NCBI GenBank assembly: GCA_037129475.1
Contig: JBAXUY010000002.1
Coordinates: 50,170 to 114,169 of the forward strand
DNA from: Planctomycetia bacterium
GTDB lineage: Bacteria; Planctomycetota; Planctomycetia; Pirellulales; UBA1268
Length of the DNA: 64,000 nucleotides
Reading direction: 5' to 3'
Below, one piece after another: positions 1,854-48,918 of this stretch. The position numbers and the translations under genes were made by a program. Position 1 is the stretch's first letter. Every line of letters begins with the position of its first letter. The notes beneath the pieces were generated by a model. That model made no database searches. It was not told where the DNA came from and worked only from the letters and a program-made list of their open reading frames with translations.

Positions 1854-2348
1854 TCAGGCCGAGCGGACCTGCACCTTGTGGGGCTGGGCCTCGGGCGCCT
1901 TCGGGCAGGTCACGGTGAGCACGCCGTCGGTGAGCCGCGCCTCCACCCGGGCGGCGTCGACCGCCACGGGCAGTGTGATCCGCCGCTCGAAGGTGCCGGT
2001 GCCACGTTCGCGACGGTGCCAGGTGACGGCGGGCTTCCGTTCGCCGTTGCCTTTCCCGCCGGTCGGCTCGGTCGTGGGGCCCTGCGGCTCCGGCCGCGAG
2101 CCTTTCAAGACGAGTTCGTCACCCGTCACGGCGATGTCGACACCGCCCGCGTCGAGGCCGGGCACTTCCGCCTCGACCACGATGGCGTCGTCGGTTTCAC
2201 GGACGTTGACGGCGGGGAACGCGGTCGTCGACGGCTGGCTGCCCCAGCCGTGCAACGGCGGGGCCGCCACGAGGTTGCCCCAGAGGCGATCAAACTCGTC
2301 GCGCAGTTCGTCGAGTGGGTGCGCGAAGCCCGTACGGTAGGTCTGCAT
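1854..2348 (-). CDS. Hsp20/alpha-crystallin family small heat-shock protein
   Basis: ORF 1854..2459 trimmed to the ATG at 2348 (MQTYRTGF...), which has GGAG 6 nt upstream. The ATG at 2360 is an alternative. Motifs: PAVNVRETDDAIVVEAEVPGLDAGGVDIAVTGDELVLKG ... GTFERRITLPVAVDAARVEARLTDGVLTVTCPK. Confidence 0.85.
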   Translation of the reverse strand: MQTYRTGFAHPLDELRDEFDRLWGNLVAAPPLHGWGSQPSTTAFPAVNVRETDDAIVVEAEVPGLDAGGVDIAVTGDELVLKGSRPEPQGPTTEPTGGKGNGERKPAVTWHRRERGTGTFERRITLPVAVDAARVEARLTDGVLTVTCPKAPEAQPHKVQVRSA

Positions 2349-2790
2349 CGCTGACTCCATGAACAGGGAGGGAAAGAACAGGCAAAACCGCGGTTCTGCT
2401 TTCCGGCCGCCGTCCATGGAACGCGATGAATCATTCGCGCGGACCGCACCGAAAAACAAATCGCCGCCGGCCGTGGGGCACGAAAAAGCAAAGTCCGTGC
2501 CAACGGCGCGGCGTTGGTGTTCGGCCGTGCACGCGGCAAAAAACCCCCGAAGAAACGGCCGGCGCGCCGCCCCGTCGGCCTCCTCGTGAAACTCTGCGGG
2601 TCGTGACGGCTGTCAGGTTGGCAGCACCCCGAAATCACCTCTGGCAGCCGGAGCGGACGGTTGTGGGGGGGTCGGGAACGCCATAGACTGCTGGCCTGTG
2701 AACGGACTCGCTTGACGCGAGCATGGCATCCACCCGGCGGCGGGTGGTCGTGCCGGCCGGAATCGTCACTCTCGTCGCAATGGATTTCTC

Positions 2791-3375
2791 ATGCGTTTCA
2801 CGCTCCTCGACCGCGTCGTCGCCATCGATCCAGGCAAGAGCATCACCGCGATCAAGACACTCTCGCTCTCCGAGGAATACCTCGCCGACCACTTCCCGCG
2901 GTTTCCCGTGATGCCGGGCGTGCTGATGCTCGAGGCGATGACGCAGGCAGCCGCCTGGACGATCCGGCTTGCCGAAGACTTCGCCCACAGCATCGTGGTG
3001 CTCCGATCGGCGAAGAACGTGAAGTATGGCGATTTCGTCGAGCCGGGCCGGGTGCTCACGGTGACGGCCGAGGTGCTCTCGCAGGACGCGACGACCACGA
3101 AGGTGAAGGCGAGCGGCACCGTCTCGAGCGCCGGCGGCGAGCGCACGAGCCTGACGGCCCGCCTCGTGCTCGAGCGCTACAACATGGCCGACCGTCTCCC
3201 GCACGGCGATGCGATCGACGCCCGCGTGCGATCCGAGATGCGGAAACTGTGGGCCGTTCTCCACCCGGCCGGCCGGTCGGGGGGGACGCCGCGGCGGATG
3301 GTCTACGGAGCGGGTGCAGGAGGTCTCGTCGACGCTCCGCTGCCCGTCGCCGGGGCGGCGACGTTTGCCCGCTGA
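2791..3375 (+). CDS. FabZ/FabA-like 3-hydroxyacyl-ACP dehydratase (hotdog fold)
   Basis: The N-terminal 130 aa resemble FabZ: LSEEYLADHFPRFPVMPGVLMLEAMTQAAAW ... VKYGDFVEPGRVLTVTAEV. The C-terminal 50 aa or so are low-complexity. Confidence 0.7.
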   Translation: MRFTLLDRVVAIDPGKSITAIKTLSLSEEYLADHFPRFPVMPGVLMLEAMTQAAAWTIRLAEDFAHSIVVLRSAKNVKYGDFVEPGRVLTVTAEVLSQDATTTKVKASGTVSSAGGERTSLTARLVLERYNMADRLPHGDAIDARVRSEMRKLWAVLHPAGRSGGTPRRMVYGAGAGGLVDAPLPVAGAATFAR

Positions 3376-3551
3376 GAGGCGCATGGCCCGGCGGAACCGG
3401 CGTCGGCAGGCTGATTTTTGCGGGTTTTTCGCCCACGGGCGTAGAAATCGGTGCTTTTCGGGTTTCCACGTGGCGGCGCCGACATTACCTTGTGTCGCAG
3501 TCAACATGATTCCTGTTTCGTCTCGTTCCCCGTTTTCGAGGTGCCAGTTCG

Positions 3552-3938
3552 ATGCCGTCGCGCGATGAAATTTACGAAAAGGTCAAGGCCGCCCTGGTGG
3601 ACGCCCTCGGCGTCGATGACGACGAAGTCTCGCCCGCGGCGACCATGGTGGGAGATCTCGGTGCCGAGTCGATCGACTTCCTCGACATCGTGTTCCGCCT
3701 CGAGAAGGCCTTCGGCATCAAGATTCCGCGCGGCGAACTGTTTCCCGAAGACGTGCTCTCGAGCTCCGAATTCGTGACCAACGGCAAGGTCAACGCGGCC
3801 GGTATCGCCGCCCTCAAGGCCCGCATGCCGTTCGCCGATCTGGCGAAGTTCGAGGCCAACCCCAGCGTGCAAAACTTTGCCAACACGCTCACCGTGGAAG
3901 ACATGGTGCGCTACGTGCAGGGCAAGTTGGCGGCCTGA
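3552..3938 (+). CDS. Acyl carrier protein, unusually long (128 aa)
   Basis: ACP helix II region GDLGAESIDFLDIVFRLEKAFGIKIP carries the Ser attachment site in an ESID context (DSL-like). It is followed by a C-terminal extension of about 60 aa. GAGGTG lies upstream of the ATG. Confidence 0.8.
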   Translation: MPSRDEIYEKVKAALVDALGVDDDEVSPAATMVGDLGAESIDFLDIVFRLEKAFGIKIPRGELFPEDVLSSSEFVTNGKVNAAGIAALKARMPFADLAKFEANPSVQNFANTLTVEDMVRYVQGKLAA

Positions 3939-3939
3939 C

Positions 3940-4440
3940 ATGCGCTGGTTTTGGATCGATCGTTTCGACGAGTTCGTCCGCGGCAAGCATGCCACGGCCG
4001 TGAAGAACGTGTCGCTCGCCGAAGAGCACATGCACGACCACTTCCCGGGCGTGGCCTTGATGCCGAACTCGCTCGTCGTGGAGGGCATGGCCCAGACGGC
4101 CGGGCTGCTCGTGGCCGACGCCATCGAGTTCAACCGCCGGGTCGTGCTCGCGAAGGTGGCAGGGGCCGAATTTCATTTCGACGCCGTGCCCGGCGACACG
4201 CTGCGGTTCGAGGCGACGATCCTCGACCTCAAGCCGACCGGCTCGCTCTGCAAGGTGACGAGCACGGTGGGTGAGCGGTTGCAGGGCGAGGCGGAGTTGT
4301 TCTTCGCCCACCTCGAGCCGGGGGAAGGGGTGCCGAAACTGTTCGAGCCCGACGAACTGCTCCAGTGGCTCGACCAGATGCACATCTACGACGTGGGGCG
4401 CGACGAAGCCGGGCGGCCGCTCGCGCGGCCCGATTGGTGA
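3940..4440 (+). CDS. FabZ/FabA-like dehydratase (second hotdog-fold protein)
   Basis: ORF 3877..4440 trimmed to the ATG at 3940, 1 nt after the ACP stop. MRWFWIDRFDEF ... LAEEHMHDHFPGVALMPNSLVVEGMAQTAGLL ... matches the FabZ-type active-site region. Confidence 0.7.
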   Translation: MRWFWIDRFDEFVRGKHATAVKNVSLAEEHMHDHFPGVALMPNSLVVEGMAQTAGLLVADAIEFNRRVVLAKVAGAEFHFDAVPGDTLRFEATILDLKPTGSLCKVTSTVGERLQGEAELFFAHLEPGEGVPKLFEPDELLQWLDQMHIYDVGRDEAGRPLARPDW

Positions 4441-4493
4441 GTCATCAGGCCGGCGTGCACGCGAGGCCGTCGGCACGGGAAGGAAGCGAGCGA

Positions 4494-5783
4494 GTGGCCG
4501 GCAGACGCAGGGTGGTGATCACTGGAATGGGGCTCGTCACGCCGCTCGGCGTGCGCGTGGAGGAACTCTGGAAGAATCTCATGGCCGGCGCCTCGGGCGT
4601 GGGCCTGACCACCGTCTTCGACGCCTCGCGGTTTCCCACGAAGATCTCGGCCGAGGTTCGCAACTGGGACATCACCGACGAGGGGCAGGACGCCAAGCAC
4701 TGGCACTTCTGCGGTCGGCATACGAAGTTCGCTGCGGGTGCGGCCCTCCAGGCGATGCGTGATGCCGGCTTGGAGAAGGGCCTGCCCGCCGATCCCACAC
4801 GGCTCGGCGTGTATCTCGGCAGCGGCGAGGGGCAGCAGGATTTCGATTCCTTCACGAGCATGATGATGGCCGCGATCTCGGGCGACACGCTCGACGTGGC
4901 CAAGTTCACGAAGCTCGGCCTCGAGACGCTCCATCCGCTCTCCGAAGTGGAGCAGGAGCCGAACATGCCCGCCGGCCACCTCGCCGGCATGTTCGACGCC
5001 CAGGGTCCGAATCTCAACTGCCTCACGGCCTGTGCCGCGTCGAGCCAGGCGATCGGCGAGGCGGCCGAGCTCGTGCGCCGCGGCGACGCCGACGTGATGC
5101 TCTCCGGCGGCACGCACTCGATGATCCATCCCTTCGGCGTGACGGGCTTCAACCTGCTCACGGCCCTCTCCACCCGCAACGACGAGCCGACGCGGGCGAG
5201 TCGTCCCTTCGACAACGAGCGAGACGGCTTCGTGCTCGGTGAGGGGGCCGCGATGGTGGTGCTCGAGGAGCTCGAGCATGCGAAGAAACGGGGCGCGAAG
5301 ATCCACGGTGAACTGCTCGGCTACGGGTCGACGGCCGACGCCTACCGGATCACCGACACACATCCCGAGGGCCGTGGGGCCGCCGCCTGCATCACGATGG
5401 CGCTCAAGGACGCCGGCCTCGGCACGCACGACATCCACTACATCAACGCCCACGGCACGAGCACCGACGTCAACGACAAGGTCGAGACGCTCGCCATCAA
5501 GAAGGTGTTCGGGGAGCACGCCTACAAGATCCCCGTGTCGAGCACGAAGAGCATGATGGGACACCTGATCGCGGCCGCTGGCGCCACCGAACTGATCGTC
5601 TGCCTGCTGGCGATCCGCGACGGCATGCTGCCGCCGACGATCAACTACGAACATCCCGACCCCAACTGCGACCTCGACTACGTGCCGAACAAGTCGCGCC
5701 CGGGGAAGTGCGACCGCGCCCTCTCCAATAGCTTCGGGTTCGGCGGCCAAAACATCGCGCTGATCGTGGGCCGCTACGCGTAG
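4494..5783 (+). CDS. fabF: Beta-ketoacyl-ACP synthase II-like condensing enzyme
   Basis: Motifs: RRVVITGMGLVTPLG, active-site Cys in LTACAASSQAIGEA, NAHGTSTDVND, SSTKSMMGHLIAAAGA, NSFGFGGQN. Start placed at the GTG at 4494 after GGAAGGAAG. The GTG at 4437 (GTGA overlap with the upstream stop) or 4365 are alternatives. Confidence 0.9.
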   Translation: MAGRRRVVITGMGLVTPLGVRVEELWKNLMAGASGVGLTTVFDASRFPTKISAEVRNWDITDEGQDAKHWHFCGRHTKFAAGAALQAMRDAGLEKGLPADPTRLGVYLGSGEGQQDFDSFTSMMMAAISGDTLDVAKFTKLGLETLHPLSEVEQEPNMPAGHLAGMFDAQGPNLNCLTACAASSQAIGEAAELVRRGDADVMLSGGTHSMIHPFGVTGFNLLTALSTRNDEPTRASRPFDNERDGFVLGEGAAMVVLEELEHAKKRGAKIHGELLGYGSTADAYRITDTHPEGRGAAACITMALKDAGLGTHDIHYINAHGTSTDVNDKVETLAIKKVFGEHAYKIPVSSTKSMMGHLIAAAGATELIVCLLAIRDGMLPPTINYEHPDPNCDLDYVPNKSRPGKCDRALSNSFGFGGQNIALIVGRYA

Positions 5784-5792
5784 GCGCCGTCT

Positions 5793-5838
5793 GGCACGCT
5801 TCCCGCGTGCCGTTTGTGGGGCAAGCGTCCCGCTTGCC
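5793..5838 (+). terminator. Two tandem hairpins after the fabF-like gene
   Basis: GGCACGC-TTCCC-GCGTGCC (5793..5811) and GGCAAGC-GTCCC-GCTTGCC (5820..5838), each followed by GTTYGTG. The C:G to A:T change between copies is compensated. They begin 10 nt after the stop. Confidence 0.4.
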
Positions 5839-5943
5839 GTTCGTGAGCCCCCCAGTCTGCCCAGCCTCGCGCCCGCAGGGTTTTCTCAACCGGTGCGACC
5901 GATGCGGCCGATACAACCCCTGAACCCTCAGGGAACCAGACCC

Positions 5944-6381
5944 ATGAAACGCGCCACCGGGCTTCTTTTGGCTGTCGCCGTGATCGGCATGTCGAGCGGC
6001 TGCTCGATCATCGACCGGCTCTTTCTCCTCAACACCGACGGCCCCTACGGCCACCACGCCCAGGGTGGCGGCGGATGCCGCGACGGGGCGTGCGAGAACG
6101 GCCAGTGCCAGGTCGGCGGGCCGTGCGAATCGTGCGGTCCCGGTGGCTGTCAGCCCGGCTGCCGCGACTGCGCCGCCGGCCACTGCAAGAAGCACGTCGG
6201 GCGGTATGGCGGCCTGGCCAAGCATCATCTTTCGCCCGCCGAGCGGGCGGCGCTCGCGGCCTCCGACTACGGGGCCACGCAGCCGGCCGGCCCGCCCACC
6301 GGCGCCGTCGCCTATCCGTATTACACGACCCGCGGCCCGCGCGACTTCCTCGCGAAGAACCCGCCCTCGATCGGGCCGTGA
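5944..6381 (+). CDS. Cys/Gly-rich lipoprotein, unknown function
   Basis: ORF 5893..6381 trimmed to MKRATGLLLAVAVIGMSSGC (signal peptide plus lipobox-like SSGC). Ten Cys lie in GGGGCRDGACENGQCQVGGPCESCGPGGCQPGCRDCAAGHC. C-terminal motif: YPYYTTRGPRDFLAKNPPSIGP. Confidence 0.6.
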   Translation: MKRATGLLLAVAVIGMSSGCSIIDRLFLLNTDGPYGHHAQGGGGCRDGACENGQCQVGGPCESCGPGGCQPGCRDCAAGHCKKHVGRYGGLAKHHLSPAERAALAASDYGATQPAGPPTGAVAYPYYTTRGPRDFLAKNPPSIGP

Positions 6382-6478
6382 TCGGGCCGCGGCCCGACTG
6401 CTCTCCTTTGCCGTGATCCAGCGCCGCCGATAGGCTTGCCGCCTGTCGGCGGTGTCGTTTTTGCAGGTGGAGGTATCC

Positions 6479-7984
6479 ATGCAGGGGAAGCAGGGCGGCG
6501 GTGTGGCGGCGGACGGTCGGCTTTCATTCACCGGCTGGCTCGTGTGCGCGATCGCGGCGATCGGGTTCGCGTTCGACATCTATGAGCTCCTGATGCTGCC
6601 GCTGATCATCAAGCCGGCGATCCAGGAGCTTTCGAAGCCGGAGATCGCGAGCCTCGTGGCGGGCGGCATGTCGCAGGCCGATGCCACGGCCCTGTGGATC
6701 CCGGGCGGCAAGAGCTACGTCGGCTGGGCGCGGACGCTGTTTTTCGTGCCGGCGATCGCCGGCGGCGTGTTCGGCCTCCTCGGCGGCTACCTCACCGATC
6801 TTCTGGGGCGCCGCCGCGTGCTCACGTTCAGCATCCTGCTCTATGCCTTCGCGGCGCTGGCGGCCGGCTTCGCCACGTCGCTGCCGCAGCTGCTCGTCTT
6901 TCGCTGCCTCGTGTTCATCGGCGTGTGCGTGGAGTTCGTGGCGGCAGTGGCGTGGCTGGCCGAGCTCTTCCCCGACCGCGAGCAGCGCGAGCGGGCCCTC
7001 GGCTGGACGCAGGCGTTTTCATCGCTCGGCGGTCTGCTCGTGGGCACGGCCAACATCCTCGCCGCGCGATTCGCCGACATCCTGCCGGCCATCCACGGCG
7101 GCCACGACGCCTGGCGCTACACGCTGATCTCGGGCGTGATCCCGGCGCTGCCGCTGATCCTCATCCGGCCGTTCCTCCCCGAAAGCCCCGTGTGGGCAGA
7201 GAAGAAGGCGGCCGGCACGCTCAAGCGGCCGAGCATCCGCGAGCTCTTCAGCCCGGCGCTCGTCCGCACGACGGTGCTCACGACGCTCGTGTTCGCGGCC
7301 AGCTACGGCATCGCGTTCGGCGCGATCCAGCAGCTGCCGCAGATCCTCGGCGGCCCGAAGGGGCATGCGGCGATTCTCGCGACCGCGAAGGCGGCGCAAG
7401 ACGAGGCCGTCGCCGCTGCGGAGCAGGCGGGCAAGCCCGCGTTGCCAGCCGGCAAGCTCAAGAGCATCGCGGGCAATGCCACCGACGAGGCGGTGGCCGG
7501 CGTCACGATCTTCCAGGAGGTGGGTGGCCTCGTCGGCCGCGTGCTGCTGGCGTGGGCCGCGCTCCGGGTGCTGAGCCGGCGGGCGCTCCTGCGGATGTTC
7601 CAGATTCCGGCGCTCGTCGTGGTGCCGGCGCTCTTCTGGTGGATTTCCACGCAGCTCACGAATAGCGACTCGCTGCCCTGGATCAAGGCGGGCATCTTCG
7701 TGGCCGGCCTGCTCACGGTGGCCCAGTTCAGCTTCTGGGGCAACTACATCCCGCACGTCTTCCCGACGCACCTTCGCGGCACGGGCGAGAGCTTCGCGGC
7801 CAACATCGGCGGCCGCGTGCTCGGCACGGCTGCCGCCTGGCTCACGCTCACGTTCTCGGCGGCCACGCCGCCCGATCCGATGCGGATCGCCGTCGTGGGC
7901 GCGATCGTGGCCGGCCTCTATGCCCTCATGGGCGCGATCCTCACGCAGTGGCTCCCCGAGCCCGACTCCTCGCTCGAGCACTGA
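6479..7984 (+). CDS. MFS transporter
   Basis: The ATG at 6479 is preceded by GGTGGAGGT. The protein is polytopic and hydrophobic, with an MFS loop motif (GGYLTDLLGRRRVL) and 12 or more predicted helices by eye. Confidence 0.85.
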   Translation: MQGKQGGGVAADGRLSFTGWLVCAIAAIGFAFDIYELLMLPLIIKPAIQELSKPEIASLVAGGMSQADATALWIPGGKSYVGWARTLFFVPAIAGGVFGLLGGYLTDLLGRRRVLTFSILLYAFAALAAGFATSLPQLLVFRCLVFIGVCVEFVAAVAWLAELFPDREQRERALGWTQAFSSLGGLLVGTANILAARFADILPAIHGGHDAWRYTLISGVIPALPLILIRPFLPESPVWAEKKAAGTLKRPSIRELFSPALVRTTVLTTLVFAASYGIAFGAIQQLPQILGGPKGHAAILATAKAAQDEAVAAAEQAGKPALPAGKLKSIAGNATDEAVAGVTIFQEVGGLVGRVLLAWAALRVLSRRALLRMFQIPALVVVPALFWWISTQLTNSDSLPWIKAGIFVAGLLTVAQFSFWGNYIPHVFPTHLRGTGESFAANIGGRVLGTAAAWLTLTFSAATPPDPMRIAVVGAIVAGLYALMGAILTQWLPEPDSSLEH

Positions 7985-9528: not shown

Positions 9529-10774
9529 CGGGCGGCTGTGACGCGCGGCCGACGTCGAGGCACGTGAGCGTGGTATCGTCGCGCAGGTAGAGCCGCCCGG
9601 AGGCGAGGGCGGGCAGGGCCCGCACGGTGCCGGCGAGCGGCCGGGCGCGGGCGAGGATCGTGACGCCCGCCGGAGTCGCGGTCATGAGCACGAGGTCGCC
9701 ATCGGTCTTCGCGGCGAGCAGTTTGCCGTCGGCGGCGACGAGCGTGCCGTAGCCGAAGTTCGCCTCGCGCCACGCCGCGCGACCGGTGCCGAGATCGACG
9801 CACACGAGATCGGCCGGCGGAAGATCGTCGCGGCCGTCGATGCCATAGGCATGGCCTCCGCTCACGATCGGCGTGCAGTATTGGGTGGCGAGCGCGTCGG
9901 CTCCCTCCCAGCGTTTCGTGAAGCCCGTCGCGTCGAACGTCGCGCACACCGAGCCGATGCCATACGAGGCCGTGACGAGGAGTCGGCCGTCGGGCAGGAC
10001 GACCGGCGTGGCGGCGTTGACCGTCGGTCCGCGCTGGCCGAAGGGAAACTGCCAGCGGATCGCCCCCGATTCGGGGTCGAGAAGCAGGCAGGCGTAGCGC
10101 GTGACCATGAGCACGTGGGGCGTGCCGGCGATCGTGACGGCGACGGGGGCCGCGTAGCTCGCGGGCTCGGCGGTTTTCGTCCATACGGTGTCGCCCGTCG
10201 CCAGGGAAAACGCCACGATCCCCGCCTCGGACCGCGAACCACCCACGTTCACGATCACGTGATCGGCCACGACGAGTGGCGTCGAGCCGGCGCCGAAATA
10301 GCCCTCGGGGGCGCGGAAGTCGCGATGCGTGTCGCGGAGCCAGAGCCGCTTGCCCGTGGCGGCGTCGACACAGCGCAGCGCGCCCTGCGCACCGAACGCG
10401 ATCACGCGGCCGTCGTGGACGAGTGGCACACAGAGCGGCCCGTCGCCGCCACCCACCTGCGGCGCGAACGACGTCGGCTGCTCATCGGCCCAGAGTGATT
10501 CACCCGTGGCGGGATCGAGCGCTTCGAGCACCTCGGCGTCGGCGACGCGGTGCAAGAGCACCACACGGCCGCCGGCCACGGCCACGCCCGCATAGCCACG
10601 GCCCACGGGCTTCGACCACATCGCCCGCGGGCCGCCTGCGGGCCAGGTATCGGCAAGCCGCTCGTCGGCCGCGGCCACGCCGTTGCGCTCGGGCCCGAGG
10701 ATCTGCGGCCACTCGCCGGCACGGCACGCGGCCGTCGCCCACAGCACGGCGGCGAGGCAGGCCGCGGGCCTCAT
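9515..10774 (-). CDS. PQQ-like beta-propeller repeat protein (BamB-like fold)
   Basis: ORF 9515..11239 trimmed to MRPAACLAAVLWATAACRA (signal peptide) at 10774. Repeated units such as GRVVLL...ALDPATGESLW, GRVIAFGAQGALRCVDAATGKRLW and LLLDPESGAIRWQ are typical of PQQ-propeller repeats. Confidence 0.8.
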   Translation of the reverse strand: MRPAACLAAVLWATAACRAGEWPQILGPERNGVAAADERLADTWPAGGPRAMWSKPVGRGYAGVAVAGGRVVLLHRVADAEVLEALDPATGESLWADEQPTSFAPQVGGGDGPLCVPLVHDGRVIAFGAQGALRCVDAATGKRLWLRDTHRDFRAPEGYFGAGSTPLVVADHVIVNVGGSRSEAGIVAFSLATGDTVWTKTAEPASYAAPVAVTIAGTPHVLMVTRYACLLLDPESGAIRWQFPFGQRGPTVNAATPVVLPDGRLLVTASYGIGSVCATFDATGFTKRWEGADALATQYCTPIVSGGHAYGIDGRDDLPPADLVCVDLGTGRAAWREANFGYGTLVAADGKLLAAKTDGDLVLMTATPAGVTILARARPLAGTVRALPALASGRLYLRDDTTLTCLDVGRASQPPVTSE

Positions 10775-11196
10775 TCGACGAGCGTGCGCGGAGCCCGCGG
10801 CGCGTCGTCGGGCAGCGTAGGCACGGTCCAGATCACGTAGAGTCCGCAGGCGACGAGGCCGATCGCGGCATACTTGAGCCACCACGGCAGGCTGTTGAGC
10901 ACGAGGCTCGTGGCTACGACCGCGGCCACGAGGAGGATCGTGCGATACTTCACGCTCTTGCGGATACCGTGGTAGTGCTGCCAGTCGTCGAGCGTGGGGC
11001 CGAACCACTTCGAGCGGTGCAGCCAGGCGTGGATCCGCGGCGAACCGCGGTAGAAGCACCAACTCGCGAGGAGCAAAAACGGCGTAGTGGGCAGGAGCGG
11101 CAGGATCGAGCCGAGCACGGCCAGGCCGACGCACGTCCAGCCGCCCACCACGTAGAGAAAGCTCGTCAGCGGGTCGGTGGTGGGCTTGAGATCCAT
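10771..11196 (-). CDS. YbaN/DUF454 family inner-membrane protein
   Basis: 141 aa with the motif LGSILPLLPTTPFLLLASWCFYRGSPRIHAWL characteristic of DUF454. Its stop overlaps the start of the downstream propeller gene (ATGA). Confidence 0.8.
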   Translation of the reverse strand: MDLKPTTDPLTSFLYVVGGWTCVGLAVLGSILPLLPTTPFLLLASWCFYRGSPRIHAWLHRSKWFGPTLDDWQHYHGIRKSVKYRTILLVAAVVATSLVLNSLPWWLKYAAIGLVACGLYVIWTVPTLPDDAPRAPRTLVE

Positions 11197-11259
11197 GGGC
11201 GTCCAGGCCGGCGAAGCGGGTGTTCGAGCATCGTATCACGCGGACGTGCGCGGGGCTGT

Positions 11260-11288
11260 TTGTGGGAAAAACGCCGAGTTCCTATGCT
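11260..11288 (+). promoter_or_regulatory. Candidate sigma70-type promoter of fba
   Basis: TTGTGG-17 nt-TATGCT about 60 nt upstream of the ATG at 11349. GAGGAG Shine-Dalgarno at 11336..11341. Confidence 0.3.
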
Positions 11289-11348
11289 TTTGCACGGTCT
11301 GCCTGCCCGCCTGCTCGATATCCCGCCTTCGCCTGAGGAGTTTCCACC

Positions 11349-12398
11349 ATGCCGCTCGTCCCCATGCGCATCCTGCTCGACCACGCCGCCGAACATGGCT
11401 ACGGCCTCGCCGCCTTCAACGTCAACGACATGGAGCAGATCCAGGCGATCATGGAGGCGGCCAACGAGACCGACAGCCCCGTGATCGTGCAGGCCTCGCG
11501 GGGCGCGCGCAGCTACAGCCAGGACAACTACCTCCGGCATCTCATGCTCGCCGCGGCGGAACTCTATCCGAAGATCCCGATCGCGATGCACCAGGACCAC
11601 GGCAACTCGCCGGCCACCTGCCAGAGCGCGATCGACAACGGCTTCACGAGCGTGATGATGGACGGCTCGCTCAAGGAAGACGGCAAGACCCCGGCCGACT
11701 TCGACTACAACGTGAAGGTGACGAAGGAGGTCGTGGGGCTGGCCCACCGGCAGGGCGTGTCGGTGGAGGGCGAGCTCGGCTGCCTCGGGTCGCTCGAGAG
11801 CGGCGAGGGCGAGGCCGAGGACGGCCACGGCGCGAGTGGAAAACTCTCCCACGACCAACTGCTCACCGACCCCGACGAGGCGGCGCGATTCGTGGCGTCC
11901 ACCGGCGTCGACGCGCTGGCCGTGGCAATCGGCACGAGCCACGGTGCCTACAAGTTCACCCGCAAGCCCGACGGTGATGTGCTCGCGATGAAGCGGATCG
12001 AGGAGATCCACCGCAAGCTCCCCAACTGCCACCTCGTGATGCACGGCTCGTCGAGCGTGCCGCAGGATCTCCAGGACGTCATCAACAAGTACGGCGGCAA
12101 GATGCCGCAGACATGGGGCGTGCCCGTCGAGGAGATCCAGAAGGGCATCAAGCACGGCGTCCGCAAGATCAACGTCGACACCGACTGCCGCATGGCGATC
12201 ACGGGCGCGATCCGCAAGGTGCTCTTCGAGTCGCCCGAGAAGTTCGACCCGCGCGACTACCTGAAGCCGTCGCGCGAGGCGATGAAGAAGGTGTGCGGCG
12301 AGCGCATGGTGCAATTCGGTCAGGCCGGCAACGCCGGCAAGGTGAAGTGCATCACGCTGGCAGAAATGGCTGGGCGTTACGCGCGCGCCGGCTCGTGA
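11349..12398 (+). CDS. fba: Class II fructose-1,6-bisphosphate aldolase
   Basis: [38 protein letters not shown]...[14 protein letters not shown]...MHQDHG...[14 protein letters not shown]...[10 protein letters not shown]. Full-length match to the class II FBA pattern. Confidence 0.95.
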
Positions 12399-12690: not shown

Positions 12691-12771
12691 AGTTCGCTGG
12701 AATGTAGATGGCTAGCCGGTGGAAAGCTGCATTGCGGCGGGTTGCCCAGTCGCCCTATAGTCCCGCCCCTC

Positions 12772-13812
12772 ATGGACGCCCCCCGCCCCTCCGCCGACCC
12801 GACGGATGCCGACCTGCTCACGCACGGCCGGGAGATTCTCCGTGCCGAGGGAGAGGCGATCCTGCGGTCGGCGGACGCACTCGGCGATGCGTTCGCCCGC
12901 GCGGTGCGGATCGTGGCCGACTGCACCGGTAGCGTGGTGGTGACGGGCATCGGCAAGGCGGGGCTCGTGGCGCGGAAGATCTCGGCAACGCTCGCGTCCA
13001 CCGGCACGCCGAGCCACTTTCTCCATCCCGCCGAGGCGATGCATGGCGACCTCGGGGCGCTGCGGCGCGACGACGTCGTGCTCGCGCTCTCGCAGTCGGG
13101 TGAGACCGAGGAGATCGTGCGGCTCGTGCCGCACGTGGTGGCCCGCCGCGTGCGGATCGTCGCGCTCACCGGCTCGGCGCAGAGCACGCTTGGCCGTGCG
13201 GCAGACGTCGTCGTGCCGACCGGCAGCGTGCGCGAGGCGTGCACGCTCGGCCTCGCGCCCAGCACGAGCACGTCGCTGATGCTCGCCCTCGGCGACGCGC
13301 TGGCGCTCGTGACGAGCGGCCTGCGGCAGTTCACGCGTGAGGAGTTCGCGGCCCGGCATCCCGGGGGCAGTCTCGGCCGGCAGTTGATGCGCGTCGAGGA
13401 TGCGATGCGGCCGATTGCCCAGTGTCGGACGGCCCACCCGGCCGACACGGTGCGCGACGTCTTCGTACGGCCGCTGCCGGTCCGGCGCACCGGGGCGGTG
13501 ATGATCGTCGACGACGCCGGACGGCTTGCCGGCATCTTCACCGACAGCGACCTGGCCCGGCTCTTCGAACGGCGCAACGACGCGGCCCTCGACCATCCGA
13601 TCGGTCGCGTGATGACCGTCCGGCCCGCGACGATCCCGCATGGCACCCGGCTCAGCGACGCCCTCGCGATCCTCGAGGCGCGGCGCTTGAGCGAACTGCC
13701 GGTGCTCGACGGGGTGGGCCGCGTCGTCGGCCTGCTCGACATCGTCGATCTCGTCGGCATGGTGCCGCCGGAGATGGTGGATCTGCCCCTCACCACGCCC
13801 GCCGCCGCCTGA
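12772..13812 (+). CDS. kdsD: Arabinose-5-phosphate isomerase (KpsF/GutQ/KdsD family; SIS plus tandem CBS domains)
   Basis: VVVTGIGKAGLVARKISATLASTGTPSHFLHPAEAMHGDLG ... SQSGETEE, followed by CBS-like repeats. Start placed at the ATG at 12772 (the ORF track starts at the TTG at 12742). Confidence 0.9.
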   Translation: MDAPRPSADPTDADLLTHGREILRAEGEAILRSADALGDAFARAVRIVADCTGSVVVTGIGKAGLVARKISATLASTGTPSHFLHPAEAMHGDLGALRRDDVVLALSQSGETEEIVRLVPHVVARRVRIVALTGSAQSTLGRAADVVVPTGSVREACTLGLAPSTSTSLMLALGDALALVTSGLRQFTREEFAARHPGGSLGRQLMRVEDAMRPIAQCRTAHPADTVRDVFVRPLPVRRTGAVMIVDDAGRLAGIFTDSDLARLFERRNDAALDHPIGRVMTVRPATIPHGTRLSDALAILEARRLSELPVLDGVGRVVGLLDIVDLVGMVPPEMVDLPLTTPAAA

Positions 13813-13842
13813 TCAGTGGGGCTGCCGGGCACCGACCTTTCC

Positions 13843-14397
13843 ATGAAATCAGCCGCGAATCTTCACGATGCGCTCCACGCGCGGCTCGCGCAGGTGAAGC
13901 TGCTCCTTGTCGACGTCGACGGCGTGCTCACCGAGGGGGGCGTGACGTGGACGAACGAGGGGATCGAGCAGAAGACGTTCCACATCCGTGACGGCCTCGG
14001 CATCCGGCTCTGGCAGCGGGCCGGTGGCCGCACGGGAATCGTCACCGGCCGGGCGAGCCGCGTCGTGCAACTGCGGGCCGAGGAACTCGGGATCGGGATC
14101 GTGAAGCAGGGGGTCGAGGACAAGCTCGACACCACGGCGGCCATCCTCGCCGAGTGCGGTGTGTCGTGGGAGCAGACGGCCTTCGTCGGCGACGACCTCC
14201 CCGACCTCGCCGTGATGATGCGGTGCGGCGTGGGCGTGGCGGTGGCGAATGCGTGCCCCGAGGTGCTCGAGGTGGCGGCGATCGTGACCCGGCTACCCGG
14301 CGGGCAGGGGGCCGTGCGCGAGGTGATCGAGCAATTGCTCAAGGCCCGCGGCAGTTGGGAGGCGATCGTGCGCCGCTATCAGCCGCTGGCGGCCTGA
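13843..14397 (+). CDS. kdsC: KDO-8-phosphate phosphatase (HAD-IIIA, KdsC family)
   Basis: LLLVDVDGVLTEGGV ... HIRDGLGIRLWQRAG...GIVTGR ... KQGVEDKL ... AFVGDDLPDLAVM matches the KdsC pattern. ATG at 13843. Confidence 0.85.
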   Translation: MKSAANLHDALHARLAQVKLLLVDVDGVLTEGGVTWTNEGIEQKTFHIRDGLGIRLWQRAGGRTGIVTGRASRVVQLRAEELGIGIVKQGVEDKLDTTAAILAECGVSWEQTAFVGDDLPDLAVMMRCGVGVAVANACPEVLEVAAIVTRLPGGQGAVREVIEQLLKARGSWEAIVRRYQPLAA

Positions 14398-14421
14398 CGA
14401 AAGCGAAACGGGCGGGCCCTC

Positions 14422-17400
14422 ATGGAACATCGCCTCGGACGCACGCTGCGGGTGTTTCTCATCGCGCTCTGCGCGGCGGGGTTCTACCGGCTGGCCATCG
14501 TGCCGTGGGTGGAGCCGCGGGTCGCGGACACGGCGACGGCGCTCGAACTCTCACCGGAGCAGGCGGCTGCGATCCGGGCACGGGCCGACAAACGGCTGGC
14601 GGCCCTCGGAGACGTGTTTCCCGAGGGTTCCTGGGAACGCGACGATCCGATCGTGCTCGAGAGTCGGCAGATGCGGCTCCTCTTCAAGCAATACCATTCG
14701 CTGCCCGACGGCCGCGTGAATCTCGTGCCGTGCACGCTCGTGATGCTCTCCGATCGCAACCGTTCGGCCGAGGGCGAAGGAGCCGGCCGGACGATCGTGC
14801 TGCGGGCCCCGCAGGGGGCGGTGCTCGAGTTCGACGAGCCGCTCGACCTACGGCAGGGCCGGCTCGCGAAGCTCATCGGCGGCAGCCTCCGGGGGCAGGT
14901 GACGATCCGCGGCACGGCCACGGGCCCCGACGCCGACGACGAGATCGAGATCGTGACCCGCGACGTCGAACTCGCGGAACTCGAGATCCGCACCAGCGAG
15001 ATGGTGCAGTTTCGCTACGGCCGGTCGACCGGCAGCGGCCGGGCCCTCGTGGCGGCCCTGCTGCCGAAGGCGGGCGGTGCGGGCGGCCCCGGGATGAGCG
15101 GTCCGAACATCGGCGGCGTCGATTCGATCCGGCTCGATCGCGACGTGAGGATGCGACTCGAAGGGTTTTCCTCCGGGCTGCTTTCCGGGCCGGACACCCC
15201 GCGGCCGACGGCCACGGGCACCGCCGGGCCGGGCACCGACCAGCCGCCCGTGCTCGTCAGTTGCCGCGGCGCGCTGTGCATGAACGTGTCGGCCAACGTG
15301 ATCACGTTCGAGGACAAGGTCGACGTCGTGCGCACCGCGGCGGGTGGAGCCACCGATCAACTGTCGTGCGATCTGCTGGCGATCATGCTTGCGCGGGGCG
15401 AGGCCGACCCGGGCCCTGGAGCCGCCGCGGGGGGGCTGAAGCCGGTGGAGATTCAGGCGCGCGGCACGCCCGTGATCGCCCGCTCGACCGCGGCGGAGCT
15501 CGAGGCGAAGGGGGCGAGGCTGGGCTACGAGATCGCCACGCGACGGATTCTCCTCGACGGCGAGGAGCCGGTGTCGCTCGTGCTTCAGGGCACCGAGATG
15601 CAGGCCCGCTCGATCGACTATTGCCCCGGCCCGCCGGGTGACCCGGGCTCGCTGATGGCCGTCGGCCCCGGCCTGCTCACGGCGCGGTCGCCGGGGTCGC
15701 CGCCGGTGCAGGCCCGGTGGCAGAAGTGGCTGCGGATGCGGCCCGACGGTGCTGGGCATGTCGCGTCGCTCGCGGGCGAAGCCGACGTGACGATCGAGGG
15801 GCAGGGCCGGCTGAGCGCCGCCGAGATGCACCTCTGGCTCGATGTCACGCGCGGCACGGCCGACGCGCCACCGCGTGCGAACCCTGCCGGTCCGCATCTG
15901 GCCGGCGTGAAACCCGCGCGAATGCTCGCCCGCGGCATGGTGGAGATCGACACCGAGCCGCTGACGGCGCGCACCGAGCGGATGGAGCTGTGGTTCAAGC
16001 ACGTGGCGGCAGCGGCTCCGACGCCGGCCGCCGCAGGGGGAAGCGTGGCCGCACCGCCGGTCGCTGCGGCAGCCGGTGGTGCCGGGCCACAGCCAGTCGC
16101 GCCGGCGAAGCAAGCCGACCCCACACTCCCCGCTCGCGGCAAGATGATTGCCACCGGCGGGCTCGTCCGCGGTCTCATCAGCATGGCCCCGAACAACAAC
16201 CAGATCGAGGAGATCTCGCTCGAGAACCAGGTGCAGCTCGTCGAGGAGCCGCGGGGGCTGGCGGCGGCCGCACCGGCGGAGCCGGCGCTGGCGATCTCGG
16301 GCGACCAGTTGCAACTCTCGCGGCCCACGCGGTTCGACGCGCGGGCCGTGGTCTCGGGGCGGCCGGCGAAGGTGCAGGGCCGCGGCCTCGACCTCGAAGG
16401 GCCGCTCGTCGAGTTTGATCGGGGGCGCAATCGCCTGCTCGTGGACGGAGCCGGTACGCTCGGCCTGCCGATGACGGGCGCAGCGAGTGGGTTTGAATCG
16501 CTGGGCATGATCGGCGGGGCTGCACCGCCGTCGGCTCCCCCCGCGGGCGCCCCTGCCGGCCGGCTCGTCGTGGCCTGGCAGGGACGGATGGACTTCGACG
16601 GACTGACGGCCCGGTTCGTCGATCGCGTGACGACGACGAGCGGTGCGACGGCCCTTCACGCCGGATCGCTCGACGTCGTGTTCACCCAGCCGATGGACTT
16701 CAGCGCCGATGGCATGCAGCGCGGTGCGCCGCGGGCCGACGTGGCGAGGATCGCCTGCGGCAGCGGCGTGCGGATCGAGAGCCAGTCGGCGGCTGCGGAC
16801 GGCTCGCGGTCACTCGAAAAACTGTTCGTGCGCGACCTCGTGCTCGACCGCGCGACGGGCGACGTGTCGGGCACCGGACCGGGCCGGCTCACGAGCACGC
16901 GATTCGGCCAGGGCCCGGCGCTTGGGATGCCGGCAGTCGCCGCGCCGGGTCAGCCCGCTCCGGCGGCCCCTCCGCCGCGGCCCGACGAACTCACGTATCT
17001 GGGCGTCGATTTCCAGAAAGGGCTGCGCGGCAACATGAACCGCCGGCAGATGGAGTTTCATCAGCGGGTGGAGGCGATCTGGGGCCCCGTGGCCGGCTGG
17101 GCTGACACGCTCGACCCGCACGCCCCGGGCGGACTCGCACCGCGGGCGGTGGCGATCACGAGCGACGTGCTCGGCGTGGCCCAGGCCCCGCCCGCGCCGG
17201 GACAGCGGCGCACGAGCATCGAGTTGATGGCCGGCGGCAACGTGCTCGTGGAGGGAGAGTCGTTCACGGCGCGCAGCGCACGCCTCAGTTGGAGCGAGGC
17301 CAAGGACCTGCTCGTGTTCGAGGGCGACGGCCGCAGCGACGCGCAGCTCTTCCGGCAGGTGAAGGTGGGCGCGCCGATGTCGAGCGCGTCGGCCGGCAAG

Positions 17401-17553
17401 ATCCTCTACTGGCGGGCGCTCAACCGTGTCGACGTGGACGACGCCCGGTTCCTCGACCTCGACCAGCTCGGAGGCGGAGCCGGCGGCCCGCGGCTCCCCG
17501 GCTTCGGCTCTGCTCCCGCCCAGCCCGTCAGCCGCCCGCTCCCGGGCACCTGA
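14422..17553 (+). CDS. Giant membrane-anchored periplasmic protein, candidate LptC/LptA (OstA-like) multi-module protein
   Basis: 1,043 aa with an N-terminal TM helix (LRVFLIALCAAGFYRLAIVPWV). Several beta-rich modules are separated by Pro/Ala/Gly linkers (AAAAPTPAAAGGSVAAPPVAAAAGG; APGQPAPAAPPPRPDE). The C-terminal module GGNVLVEGESFTARSARLSWSEAKDLLVFEGDG resembles OstA/LptA. The gene sits directly after kdsD-kdsC. Confidence 0.5.
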   Translation: MEHRLGRTLRVFLIALCAAGFYRLAIVPWVEPRVADTATALELSPEQAAAIRARADKRLAALGDVFPEGSWERDDPIVLESRQMRLLFKQYHSLPDGRVNLVPCTLVMLSDRNRSAEGEGAGRTIVLRAPQGAVLEFDEPLDLRQGRLAKLIGGSLRGQVTIRGTATGPDADDEIEIVTRDVELAELEIRTSEMVQFRYGRSTGSGRALVAALLPKAGGAGGPGMSGPNIGGVDSIRLDRDVRMRLEGFSSGLLSGPDTPRPTATGTAGPGTDQPPVLVSCRGALCMNVSANVITFEDKVDVVRTAAGGATDQLSCDLLAIMLARGEADPGPGAAAGGLKPVEIQARGTPVIARSTAAELEAKGARLGYEIATRRILLDGEEPVSLVLQGTEMQARSIDYCPGPPGDPGSLMAVGPGLLTARSPGSPPVQARWQKWLRMRPDGAGHVASLAGEADVTIEGQGRLSAAEMHLWLDVTRGTADAPPRANPAGPHLAGVKPARMLARGMVEIDTEPLTARTERMELWFKHVAAAAPTPAAAGGSVAAPPVAAAAGGAGPQPVAPAKQADPTLPARGKMIATGGLVRGLISMAPNNNQIEEISLENQVQLVEEPRGLAAAAPAEPALAISGDQLQLSRPTRFDARAVVSGRPAKVQGRGLDLEGPLVEFDRGRNRLLVDGAGTLGLPMTGAASGFESLGMIGGAAPPSAPPAGAPAGRLVVAWQGRMDFDGLTARFVDRVTTTSGATALHAGSLDVVFTQPMDFSADGMQRGAPRADVARIACGSGVRIESQSAAADGSRSLEKLFVRDLVLDRATGDVSGTGPGRLTSTRFGQGPALGMPAVAAPGQPAPAAPPPRPDELTYLGVDFQKGLRGNMNRRQMEFHQRVEAIWGPVAGWADTLDPHAPGGLAPRAVAITSDVLGVAQAPPAPGQRRTSIELMAGGNVLVEGESFTARSARLSWSEAKDLLVFEGDGRSDAQLFRQVKVGAPMSSASAGKILYWRALNRVDVDDARFLDLDQLGGGAGGPRLPGFGSAPAQPVSRPLPGT

Positions 17554-36295: not shown

Positions 36296-37450
36296 ATGAA
36301 CGCTCCCCGCCATGCCTACGTGCACGTCCCGTTCTGTCGCCACCGGTGCGGCTATTGCGATTTCACGCTCGTGGCGGGGCGAGACGATCTGATCGAGCGG
36401 TATTTCGCGGCGCTCGCGATCGAAATCGAGCGAATCTCGAATGTGCCCGACGCGACGTCTGCTTCGGCGTGTCTGGAGCTAGACACGCTCTATCTTGGCG
36501 GCGGCACGCCTTCGCATCTCGGGCCCGACGGTCTACGGAAGCTCTTTGCATTGCTGCGCGAGCGGCTCGTGCCTGCCGCAGGGGCGGAGGTGACCGTGGA
36601 GGCGAATCCACTCGATGTGACCGGCGACTTCGTAACCGCCTGTCGCGATCTCGGCGTTACGCGCGTGAGTCTCGGGGGGCAGTCGCTCGATGCCGCCACG
36701 CTCCGGGCGCTCGACCGCGATCATGCGCCCGCCGACGTGCAGGGGGCCGTGAGCCGGCTGATCGACGCCGGCCTCGTCGTGAGCCTCGACCTGATGACGG
36801 CCGCGCCGGGGCAGACGCTCGCCGGGGCGGAAGGCGATCTGGCTGCCGCGGCTGCGCTCGACGTACAGCATGTGTCGGTCTACTGCCTCACGTGGGAGCA
36901 GGGGACGGCGTTCGAGTCGGCGCGGCGGCGGGGTGACCTCGTGCCGGCAGAGGAGTCGCTCGAGCGGGCAATGTTCGAGACGGCGATCGATCGGCTCGAG
37001 GCCGCCGGCTTCGAGCACTACGAGGTGAGCAACTTCGCCCGTTCGGGCTTCCGCTGCCGGCACAACGAGGCCTACTGGGACTGCCGGCCGTGGGAGGCGT
37101 TTGGCCCGGGAGCGGCCCGCTTCGACGGCCGGACGCGGATCACGAACCATCGCAGCACGACGACCTGGATCGCGAAGACGCTCGCGGGGGAGGATGCGAC
37201 GGGCGAGATCGACGCGATGACCGCCGAACAGGCGGCCCGGGAGCGGATCGTGGTGGGGTTGCGCCGCCGCGATGGCATCGACCGCGAGGCCTTTCACGCG
37301 GTGAGCGGGTTCGACCTCGACGTGCTGGCCGGACCGGCGATCGCCCGCTGGGTGGAGCGAGGGCTGGCGACCGACGATGGCGCGCGCGTGCGGCTCACGC
37401 GGGCGGGGCTGCTCGTGTCCGACGCGCTGTGGGCCGACGTGCTCACGTAG
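36296..37450 (+). CDS. hemW: Radical SAM heme chaperone HemW (oxygen-independent coproporphyrinogen oxidase-like)
   Basis: YVHVPFCRHRCGYCDF (CxxxCxxC) ... LYLGGGTPS ... EANP ... RVSLGGQS ... YEVSNFAR...CRHNEAYW. Confidence 0.9.
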   Translation: MNAPRHAYVHVPFCRHRCGYCDFTLVAGRDDLIERYFAALAIEIERISNVPDATSASACLELDTLYLGGGTPSHLGPDGLRKLFALLRERLVPAAGAEVTVEANPLDVTGDFVTACRDLGVTRVSLGGQSLDAATLRALDRDHAPADVQGAVSRLIDAGLVVSLDLMTAAPGQTLAGAEGDLAAAAALDVQHVSVYCLTWEQGTAFESARRRGDLVPAEESLERAMFETAIDRLEAAGFEHYEVSNFARSGFRCRHNEAYWDCRPWEAFGPGAARFDGRTRITNHRSTTTWIAKTLAGEDATGEIDAMTAEQAARERIVVGLRRRDGIDREAFHAVSGFDLDVLAGPAIARWVERGLATDDGARVRLTRAGLLVSDALWADVLT

Positions 37451-48568: not shown

Positions 48569-48918
48569 GGTGGAACGCGGGAGGTGGGGTCGGGGCGGGA
48601 TTGAGGGGTGGGCAAGACGAACGGGCTGGGCTGACAACTCTGCCCGGTAAAACTCTGCGGTGTCGTTCATGGCTCGAGAATCAGCGATCACGCACCCGAA
48701 GGCGTGAACTGACGAGCGAAACGAGGGCCGACGACCGCGGGGAGAGGCTTACAACCAGAACGACCGGAACAATCCGTTCCGATCACACCGGCTATCGCCG
48801 ATAAGAACACTGCCGCAAAAGAAGGCCAGCGATTCTGCTCAGGCAGAACACGTTGACGGGTGCGTGCAGTAGCGTTTCCTTGGGAATCTTGGGGGCGGAT
48901 CGTTCCGCCGACCCATGT

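Follow-up and report, generated by a model that had tools for sequence, protein, structure and literature searches.

Does a small group of genes for one acyl carrier protein (ACP), two dehydratases and one ketosynthase represent a scattered part of the main fatty-acid machinery of a planctomycete, or a line of its own? This question is raised by a 64-kb stretch of DNA from a Planctomycetia bacterium of the Pirellulales (assembly GCA_037129475.1, contig JBAXUY010000002.1, positions 50,170 to 114,169 of the forward strand), the whole of which is hereafter called the window. Its plus strand carries, at 2791-5783 and in this order, genes for a FabZ-like hotdog dehydratase (hotdog 1, HD1), a long ACP, a second FabZ-like hotdog protein (hotdog 2, HD2) and a FabF-type beta-ketoacyl-ACP synthase (KS), and Pfam and NCBIfam scores bear out the identities that a preliminary description had assigned to these four co-directional genes. 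The reading favored here, at a probability of about 0.5, is that this cassette constitutes a self-contained auxiliary type II fatty acid synthase (FAS)-like module, i.e., a second elongation and dehydration line beside normal FAS. On evidence confined to the window and to the genomes of other planctomycetes, such a dedicated role is more likely than a housekeeping one: equivalog cut-offs are missed by the ACP as well as by both hotdogs, the ACP carries an insert and an atypical helix II, and a dead ketosynthase paralogue accompanies the cassette in most distant lineages.

Conservation of the cassette

Pfam scans of the called open reading frames (ORFs) of the window revealed no other FAS-type gene, acyltransferase or thioesterase within the 64 kb and no fabD, fabG, fabI or fabH near the cassette, as had been stated in the preliminary description for the adjacent genes. 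Relatives of the cassette were compared at 87 close loci (L001-L087) and at the distant loci L088-L175. Wherever the close loci are informative, HD1 lies upstream of the ACP gene (80/80), HD2 downstream of it (82/82) and a single Cys-type KS follows (52/52), so that the arrangement cannot be ascribed to chance; co-occurrence in other genomes, which had been left as a check, is thereby found in the same order throughout the informative close relatives. At the distant loci, HD1 still precedes the ACP gene in 57 of 61 cases and HD2 follows it in 55 of 61.

Hundreds of uncultured Pirellulales/Planctomycetia metagenome-assembled genomes (MAGs) and metagenome contigs encode the long ACP at 84-97% identity. 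At E<=1e-30, an exhaustive HMMER search of 1.8 billion cluster representatives (50% identity) retrieved 58 clusters, a number that rises to 759 at E<=1e-10. Members of full length comprise ~126-136 amino acids (aa) and extend down to ~44% identity, with named representatives from Phycisphaerales (56% identity) and Thermoguttaceae (48%). A sequence identical to the window ACP was not on record in an exact-sequence look-up, and database labels are only generic ("acyl carrier protein", "beta-hydroxyacyl-ACP dehydratase"). The taxa named by source records are Pirellulales/Planctomycetia, Thermoguttaceae, Phycisphaerales and Tepidisphaeraceae/Humisphaera; the Thermoguttaceae context reads HD1-ACP-HD2-KS, while a Phycisphaerales MAG holds HD1-ACP only. 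The cassette is conserved in both Planctomycetota classes examined, Planctomycetia and Phycisphaerae. Several cassette-bearing MAG records among the close loci are titled "Candidatus Kuenenia stuttgartiensis" or "Chitinophagaceae" and look like mislabelled bins.

An acyl carrier protein with a predicted internal insert

The ACP gene (3552..3938, plus strand) encodes 128 aa with a PP-binding domain (PF00550, 45.7 bits), and its Ser40 (codon 3669-3671) within LGAESIDFLD corresponds to the ESID attachment site already recognized in the preliminary description. None of 31 family members deviates at Ser40, Ile41 or Asp42, and sequence and model together place the putative attachment serine where helix II begins within a predicted four-helix bundle, as expected for a carrier protein of this family. 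In the AlphaFold model, which was based on these 31 members (predicted local distance difference test score, pLDDT, 92.7; predicted template modelling score, pTM, 0.84), helices occupy residues 4-19, 40-54, 66-70 and 115-127, the last of them having a normal helix IV sequence. Between helix III and this C-terminal helix IV, the model contains a folded insert of ~45 residues (about 71-113), which consists of a short hairpin followed by three helices (~residues 75-112). A Foldseek search against the PDB matched only ACPs of 75-80 residues, with alignments running over ~120 query columns across a gap (target-normalized TM-score, 0.85; query-normalized, 0.54), and found no such insert in solved ACPs. 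Because these short ACPs span the whole query across the gap, the extra ~45 aa represent an internal insertion, in place of the C-terminal extension of about 60 aa that had been assumed before. Conserved positions, e.g., R-x-P-F-A-D-L, occur inside the insert family-wide.

Helix II of the long ACP holds three acidic and two basic residues, compared to six acidic and no basic ones in E. coli AcpP. Moreover, all housekeeping AcpP models score below their cut-offs (61.2 vs 66 bits for the best one; 53.2 vs 70.45 for TIGR00517). With these scores, its length of 128 aa including the insert and its weakly acidic helix II, the protein falls outside the housekeeping AcpP family.

One distant locus, L092, which is rich in sulfatases and sulfotransferases, encodes at 10001-11620 a protein of 539 aa (P0295/P0224) in which a membrane Acyl_transf_3 domain is fused to an insert-bearing long ACP. 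This fusion, if real, hints that the long ACP can hand acyl groups to an O-acyltransferase.

Two hotdog dehydratases and a ketosynthase

HD1 (2791..3375, plus strand; 194 aa) and HD2 (3940..4440, plus strand; 166 aa) both match Pfam FabA (PF07977), with 65 and 40 bits, respectively, and are 33% identical to each other, in agreement with the earlier view of HD2 as a second, divergent FabZ-like protein. Both are below the FabZ equivalogs NF000582 (HD1 89.2 and HD2 79.7 bits; cut-off 113) and TIGR01750 (85.2 and 73.8 bits; cut-off 155.15), and both are FabZ-like, not FabA-like (FabA model NF003509, 17 bits). A loss of the catalytic residues would have spoken against a function of the two proteins as dehydratases, yet both retain the catalytic His of the HFP motif and the Glu of the xEAxAQ motif and thus belong to the FabZ/FabA hotdogs by domain and active site. 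Among relatives, His34 and Glu48 are present in 140/140 and 134/140 HD1 sequences and in 120/132 and 132/132 HD2 sequences, respectively. The conserved core of HD1 comprises ~residues 1-160, with a tail past ~160 that varies among relatives. For HD2, the best solved relative is amxFabZ from Kuenenia (8AYD, 51 bits vs 48 for ordinary FabZ), and an AlphaFold model of the monomer from a shallow alignment (pLDDT 61.7) was too poor for a fold search. Long natural HD-ACP "fusions", considered as a hint at docking, turned out to be mis-called starts or frameshifts.

In FabZ enzymes, the active-site His is contributed by one subunit and the Glu by the other, which means that an HD1:HD2 heterodimer would possess two non-equivalent active sites. 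Given the invariable co-occurrence of both genes around the ACP gene, such a heteromer is attractive and may exist.

The KS gene (4494..5783, plus strand; 429 aa) has a start inferred from relatives. Its ORF is open from 4365, and a second possible start codon, GTG at 4437, shares nucleotides with the HD2 stop, which is the GTGA overlap noted in the preliminary description. This GTG is probably not the real start, however, because relatives start at the position of 4494 and several of them carry in-frame stops upstream of the equivalent start; their KS proteins are called at 430-431 aa. Conservation begins with M-(V/G)-A-G-R-R-R-V-V-I-T, corresponding to GTG 4494 behind a purine-rich ribosome-binding site, which makes 4494 the likely start and leaves a predicted spacer of 53 nucleotides (nt) between HD2 and KS. 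Tight linkage had been claimed for the whole cluster; it is real where HD2 follows the ACP gene, the reported gap of 1 nt between stop and start codon having been recovered, but the HD1-ACP spacer measures 176 nt and carries a conserved motif, so that linkage is not equally tight along the cluster.

The window KS comprises ketoacyl-synt N and C domains, reaches 498 bits with the FabF equivalog TIGR03150 (cut-off 493.75) and retains Cys, His, His and Lys, which confirms a FabF-type enzyme with an intact Cys-His-His region in both score and triad. The margin is narrow, as its orthologues in distant loci score 461-488 bits and hence stay below the cut-off. The best PDB match is a B. subtilis-type FabF (382 bits). 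Compared to solved FabFs, the window KS displays a ~13-residue insertion just past the GSG loop (residues ~130-175, about 4880-5020), and the loop itself reads GSGEGQQ vs GSGFGGL in B. subtilis FabF. The insertion presumably falls in the region lining the acyl pocket.

A FabF-type KS accompanied by two distinct FabZ-type proteins is also what an oxygen-independent unsaturated-fatty-acid branch would contain, in which one hotdog acts as dehydratase/isomerase and the KS elongates the cis-3 intermediate, as in FabA/FabB or enterococcal FabN/FabO. Known branches of this kind use the housekeeping ACP, and such a scheme leaves both the dedicated insert-bearing ACP and the chain-length-factor (CLF)-like KS partner of relatives unexplained; furthermore, no sequence feature found here marks an isomerase. 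Even though fabA was not found in Kuenenia (PMC2649909) and planctomycetes are rich in monounsaturated acids, with very-long-chain hydroxy acids being partly monounsaturated (PMC3327967), this explanation is considered very unlikely.

An inactive ketosynthase paralogue in distant relatives

Ketosynthase genes were counted at those distant loci that extend at least 3.6 kb downstream (n = 33). In 23 of them the cassette is a five-gene unit, HD1-ACP-HD2-KSa-KS, in which KSa denotes a ketosynthase with a Cys-to-Glu/Asp exchange; in 3/33, the Cys-type KS is present without KSa. This fifth gene was missing from the preliminary description. KSa is derived from FabF and matches no named family, Glu or Asp invariably stands in the position of the active-site Cys, and only two of its sequences keep the second His. 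One KSa clade belongs to Tepidisphaeraceae/Humisphaera (Phycisphaerae). Among the distant loci, L175 is situated on a 5.04-Mb contig. Probably, KSa is a CLF-type partner of the active KS. In the window, tblastn detected no KSa but a single KS only, and the cassettes of close relatives do not include it either; a KS/CLF-type pair is therefore absent here, while the inactive paralogue adjoins KS in the 23 distant loci.

The position of KSa directly before the active KS resembles the KS-alpha/KS-beta pairs of type II polyketide synthases (PKS). Unlike in those pairs, Glu or Asp and not Gln occupies the Cys position, both ketosynthases are closest to FabF, cyclases or aromatases are missing, and the window lacks the partner altogether. 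A catalogue of non-actinobacterial type II PKS-like loci lists uncharacterized planctomycete KS-CLF pairs with no further analysis (PMC10132072). Orthology of KSa to rhizobial FabF2XL (PRK06519) was rejected, since KSa scores only 66-87 bits with this model and the cut-off is 320. For the Pirellulales member R. baltica, Rattray et al. tabulated a FabF paralogue, NP_866153, with Glu163, His298, Leu300, Lys328 and Asn333 (PMC2649909). This residue pattern matches KSa, which suggests that Pirellulales may encode the partner elsewhere, outside the cassette.

Dedicated branch or housekeeping fatty acid synthesis

If the cassette simply belonged to a housekeeping FAS II with scattered genes, its four products (the long ACP, both FabZ-like proteins and FabF) would form the main fatty-acid machinery of these bacteria. 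Such a role is compatible with the KS passing the FabF equivalog cut-off, with the high conservation across the loci examined and with the location of the cassette among core genes (rpsL/rpsG, Hsp20, SerS or YidC, depending on the lineage); moreover, fabZ classically adjoins lpxA, as the hotdogs do at locus L093. Yet ACP and hotdogs remain sub-equivalog, the ACP combines its 45-aa insert with an atypical helix II, and in most relatives the KS has a dead Cys-to-Glu/Asp paralogue at its side, an arrangement foreign to housekeeping FAS. In addition, R. baltica has been reported to possess fabD (RB314), a canonical acpP of 81 aa (RB318) and fabB/F (RB320) (PMC2754498), in the light of which the long ACP is most likely a second, specialized carrier, by analogy with this organism. 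Anammox planctomycetes likewise carry a canonical acpP-fabF-fabD-fabH cluster beside a special one (PMC2649909; canonical set also in PMC10139942). In Scalindua, amxFabZ dehydrates substrates bound to amxACP but does not act on those loaded onto that organism's canonical ACP (PMC10139942), indicating that orthogonal ACP/dehydratase pairs exist in the phylum. Taken together, a housekeeping function of the cassette appears quite unlikely.

Some observations nevertheless weigh against the auxiliary module. The window KS exceeds the FabF threshold and would thereby suit a housekeeping role, and the evidence for a canonical FAS set comes from R. baltica and anammox genomes, not from the organism of the window itself. 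As KSa is not in the window, this lineage may work differently from those with a CLF-like partner. A search of 1.63 Mb of cassette loci plus the window with E. coli AcpP as query returned the long ACPs only, which is neutral as to a second ACP, and the literature provided nothing usable on the neighbors of RB4527/RB3714 or on planctomycete essential genes.

Comparison with known systems

Dedicated ACP-bearing type II FAS-like branches are already known (AcpXL, AcpM, amxACP), from which the present cassette differs in its gene set and ACP insert. Mycobacterial FAS-II combines an enlarged ACP (AcpM) with KasA/KasB and the heterodimeric dehydratases HadAB/HadBC for very-long-chain elongation, and the cassette resembles it in the enlarged ACP, the two ketosynthases and the two different hotdog dehydratase proteins. 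AcpM, however, has a C-terminal tail and not an internal insert, and Had proteins are of the MaoC and not the FabZ type; the window proteins are far below the NCBIfam cut-offs for AcpM (29 vs 146) and KasA/B (293 vs 560).

In rhizobia, the acpXL-fabZXL-fabF2XL-fabF1XL-adhA2XL-lpxXL cluster is responsible for the 27-OH-C28 very-long-chain fatty acid of lipid A (PMC11901934). Similar to this cluster, the cassette contains a dedicated ACP, FabZ-type dehydratase genes and, in most distant lineages, a FabF pair, lacks its own ketoreductase and enoyl reductase and would run beside housekeeping FAS; some of its relatives adjoin lipid A genes, and the AcpXL product class is the same as that of the planctomycete C26-C32 (omega-1)-hydroxy acids. 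In contrast to the rhizobial cluster, it has two dehydratases around the ACP, an internal ACP insert and no linked LpxXL or alcohol dehydrogenase. Pfam scans found no Lip_A_acyltrans or alcohol dehydrogenase gene in the window, and Lip_A_acyltrans is adjacent only at L093 and L094. Identity of the window KS with FabF1XL or FabF2XL was discarded (PRK06501, 359 vs 629; PRK06519, 68 vs 320), and the likeness is one of analogy, not orthology.

A closer neighbor in phylogenetic terms is the anammox amxACP-amxFabZ-FabF2-FabF cluster (Kuenenia kuste3603-3606, and Scalindua; PMC10139942; PMC2649909), which belongs to the same phylum and joins a dedicated ACP and FabZ with one active and one active-site-deviant KS. 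That the cassette is the non-anammox counterpart of this proposed "ladderane" cluster could be argued from the shared ACP, FabZ, inactive KS and active KS and from amxFabZ 8AYD being the best solved relative of HD2. Its margin over ordinary FabZs is only ~3 bits, though, and no solved ACP has the insert; the structures covered by that search should include the published one of amxACP. The cassette also has two hotdogs and an insert-bearing ACP and occurs in non-anammox classes, in hosts that are not anammox bacteria. Since B12-radical-SAM and phytoene-dehydrogenase- or phytoene-desaturase-like genes, the markers of the amx cluster, were found neither in the window nor linked in the examined loci, the cassette stands apart from that cluster, and a ladderane-type function is highly improbable.

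The preliminary description had compared the two dehydratases flanking a dedicated carrier with aryl-polyene pathways and had proposed a dedicated lipid or polyene branch as opposed to housekeeping FAS. The dedicated part of this proposal is favored by the sub-equivalog scores, the ACP insert and the canonical set of R. baltica, whereas the polyene analogy did not stand. As a type II builder of polyenes or polyunsaturated chains, the cassette would omit enoyl reduction on its special ACP, and its product could be a lipid of the pigment type or serve as precursor to the C31:9 hydrocarbon. The KS/CLF-like pair, the two different dehydratases and the dedicated ACP do resemble aryl-polyene systems with ApeI/ApeP, ApeO/ApeC and ApeE/F, and the layout of PfaC, KS-CLF-DH-DH (DH, dehydratase), fits as well. 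Pfa-type synthases, on the other hand, are thought to supply C31:9 already. Both hotdogs are FabZ-like and not FabA-like, and the ApeI-like profile (PF22818) was unmatched, with no hit of window HD1 at E<=1 and 12.8-13 bits for relatives vs a cut-off of 28.5; "ApeI-like" tags in precomputed annotation tables were not reproduced by this profile search. Furthermore, ~25 contexts held no dedicated ketoreductase, thioesterase, adenylating enzyme or LolA/MMPL-type exporter, and the aryl-polyene accessory genes ApeQ (reductase), ApeH and ApeK as well as LolA-like and MMPL genes were absent from the cassette contexts examined. C31:9 is widespread in planctomycetes (PMC3327967), for Desulfotalea, Rattray et al. 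connected polyunsaturated hydrocarbons with FabF clusters of an unusual kind (PMC2649909), and planctomycete KS-CLF pairs figure in the type II PKS-like catalogue (PMC10132072); on balance, a polyene product is nonetheless regarded as unlikely.

Proposed mechanism and product

In the auxiliary module as envisaged here, the dedicated insert-bearing ACP with its weakly acidic recognition helix would hold the growing chain, which the FabF-type KS would extend with malonyl units, while HD1 and HD2, maybe as a heteromer, would dehydrate the 3-hydroxyacyl intermediates. In most lineages, KSa, encoded between HD2 and the active KS, would act as CLF-type partner. Across ~25 independent contexts examined, no linked ketoreductase, enoyl reductase or malonyl transferase was found. 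As no such enzyme travels with the cassette, other genes have to provide these steps; the simplest source is housekeeping FAS, from whose FabD, FabG and FabI malonyl loading, ketoreduction and enoyl reduction would then be borrowed. Gene content, conservation, catalytic residues and the ACP insert are thus observations, while shared reductases, the orthogonality to housekeeping FAS, the heteromeric dehydratase and the product are inferred.

The product would be a specialized acyl chain for an envelope lipid, with very long and/or hydroxylated chains such as the C26-C32 (omega-1)-hydroxy acids as candidates. Gemmata-group planctomycetes (Telmatocola, Zavarzinella) contain saturated and monounsaturated C26-C32 (omega-1)-hydroxy acids, which are exclusively residue-bound (PMC3327967), and a limited literature search found no biosynthetic pathway assigned to them. 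G. obscuriglobus contains omega-OH-C24 in their place. An envelope or lipid A very-long-chain acyl product is a reasonable, if tentative, guess. At L093 and L094, LpxA, two LpxL-like genes and LpxB stand beside the cassette, and at L088, LpxK is 6 kb away. Directly downstream of the cassette, L153 encodes an ArnT-like PMT_2 protein, PAP2 and GT2, and downstream at L112 there are HlyD and a MacB-type ABC exporter; GT11 and a Wzx-type flippase are near the cassette at L001, and KdsD- and KdsC-like genes lie 7-8 kb downstream in the window.

Against such a product, no product-specific enzyme (acyltransferase, thioesterase, LpxXL-type) is consistently linked, the C26-C32 hydroxy acids were reported from the Gemmata group while the window organism belongs to Pirellulales, and about a dozen other lineages have the cassette flanked by unrelated housekeeping genes (SerS, S1 ribosomal protein, release factor, aminotransferases, TPR-GT41). 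Hence, the envelope link is modest and could be due to chance. Annotation of ~20 further flanking proteins likewise gave mostly unrelated housekeeping genes, ORF clustering over 32 long loci retrieved SerS in one lineage and otherwise shadow ORFs only, and none of the window's own flanking genes recur beside distant cassettes.

In the arrangement at L093 (280-5920) and L094 (934-6574), HD1-ACP-HD2 is convergent with the LpxA-like gene, the two Lip_A_acyltrans genes and LpxB. The HD2 His region is altered in this lineage (…SHGTHPDFPH…), and its KSa/KS pair is located 8 kb away.

Non-coding elements and locus setting

The HD1-ACP spacer contains a motif, TTCGGGTTYCCA-N14-GACATTAC (3457..3488, plus strand), ~65-95 nt upstream of the ACP start, the conserved columns of which are at least 80% identical over 82 non-identical upstream regions from close relatives. 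This conservation suggests a promoter or regulatory site of the ACP gene's own, and a sigma-70 promoter scan returned no consensus match. In the same alignment, A/GAGGTG is conserved as a Shine-Dalgarno-like element, present in the window as GAGGTG (3538..3543, plus strand) 8 nt before the ACP ATG. An Rfam scan of 2300-6500 gave no match.

After the KS stop, two tandem G+C-rich hairpins (5792-5812 and 5820-5838, plus strand) are possible terminators; their fold energy is -31.8 kcal/mol, but the z-score reaches only -1.68 and the U tracts are weak. A terminator scan did not call hairpins at 5792-5838. The preliminary description had let the cluster run from 2791 to 5838. Its start coincides with that of HD1, while the KS stop is at 5783, and the end at 5838 is explained by the two hairpins finishing there.

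The window has a G+C content of ~70% and a gene content typical of Planctomycetota, with DUF1552/DUF1592/DUF1588 proteins, DUF1559 proteins with an N-methylation motif, sulfatases and PATR/PEP-CTERM giants. Upstream of HD1, and divergent from it, are two Hsp20/alpha-crystallin genes (821-1417 and 1854-2348, minus strand); in many relatives 1-3 Hsp20 copies hold the same place, with rpsL-rpsG beyond. On the other side, 5893-6381 (plus strand) encodes a protein of 162 aa that is unmatched in Pfam and combines a lipoprotein-type signal (…GMSSGC) with a Cys/Gly-rich segment; it is found directly 3' of KS in most close relatives (55-88% identity) and not in distant lineages; a strong terminator-like hairpin (6421-6455) follows its gene. 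Further downstream, 12742-17553 (plus strand) comprises a KdsD/KpsF-like gene (SIS+CBS), a KdsC-like HAD phosphatase and a 1043-aa ORF without Pfam match, for which no homologue was found near distant cassettes. Finally, two adjacent giant ORFs of 2196 and 1585 aa occupy 37443-48691 (minus strand), each with nine matched Passenger-associated-transport repeat stretches and the first with a PEP-CTERM anchor, and many ~100-aa shadow ORFs with high G+C at third codon positions (GC3) appear on the plus strand of this region.

Implications

Planctomycete envelopes and lipids are unusual and their biosynthesis is largely unassigned. The cassette therewith offers a genetic handle, accessible by knockout combined with lipid mass spectrometry. 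A far-reaching combination, in which the ACP insert is a new carrier specificity domain, the FAS line is orthogonal phylum-wide and the module is the missing synthase for outer-membrane or lipid A C26-C32 acids, is doubtful as a whole. The module as such would join AcpXL and AcpM/amxACP as a third case from nature of an insulated specialized elongation line. The insulation may lie in an ACP insert not seen in solved ACPs, which would be useful for the engineering of orthogonal FAS and PKS systems.

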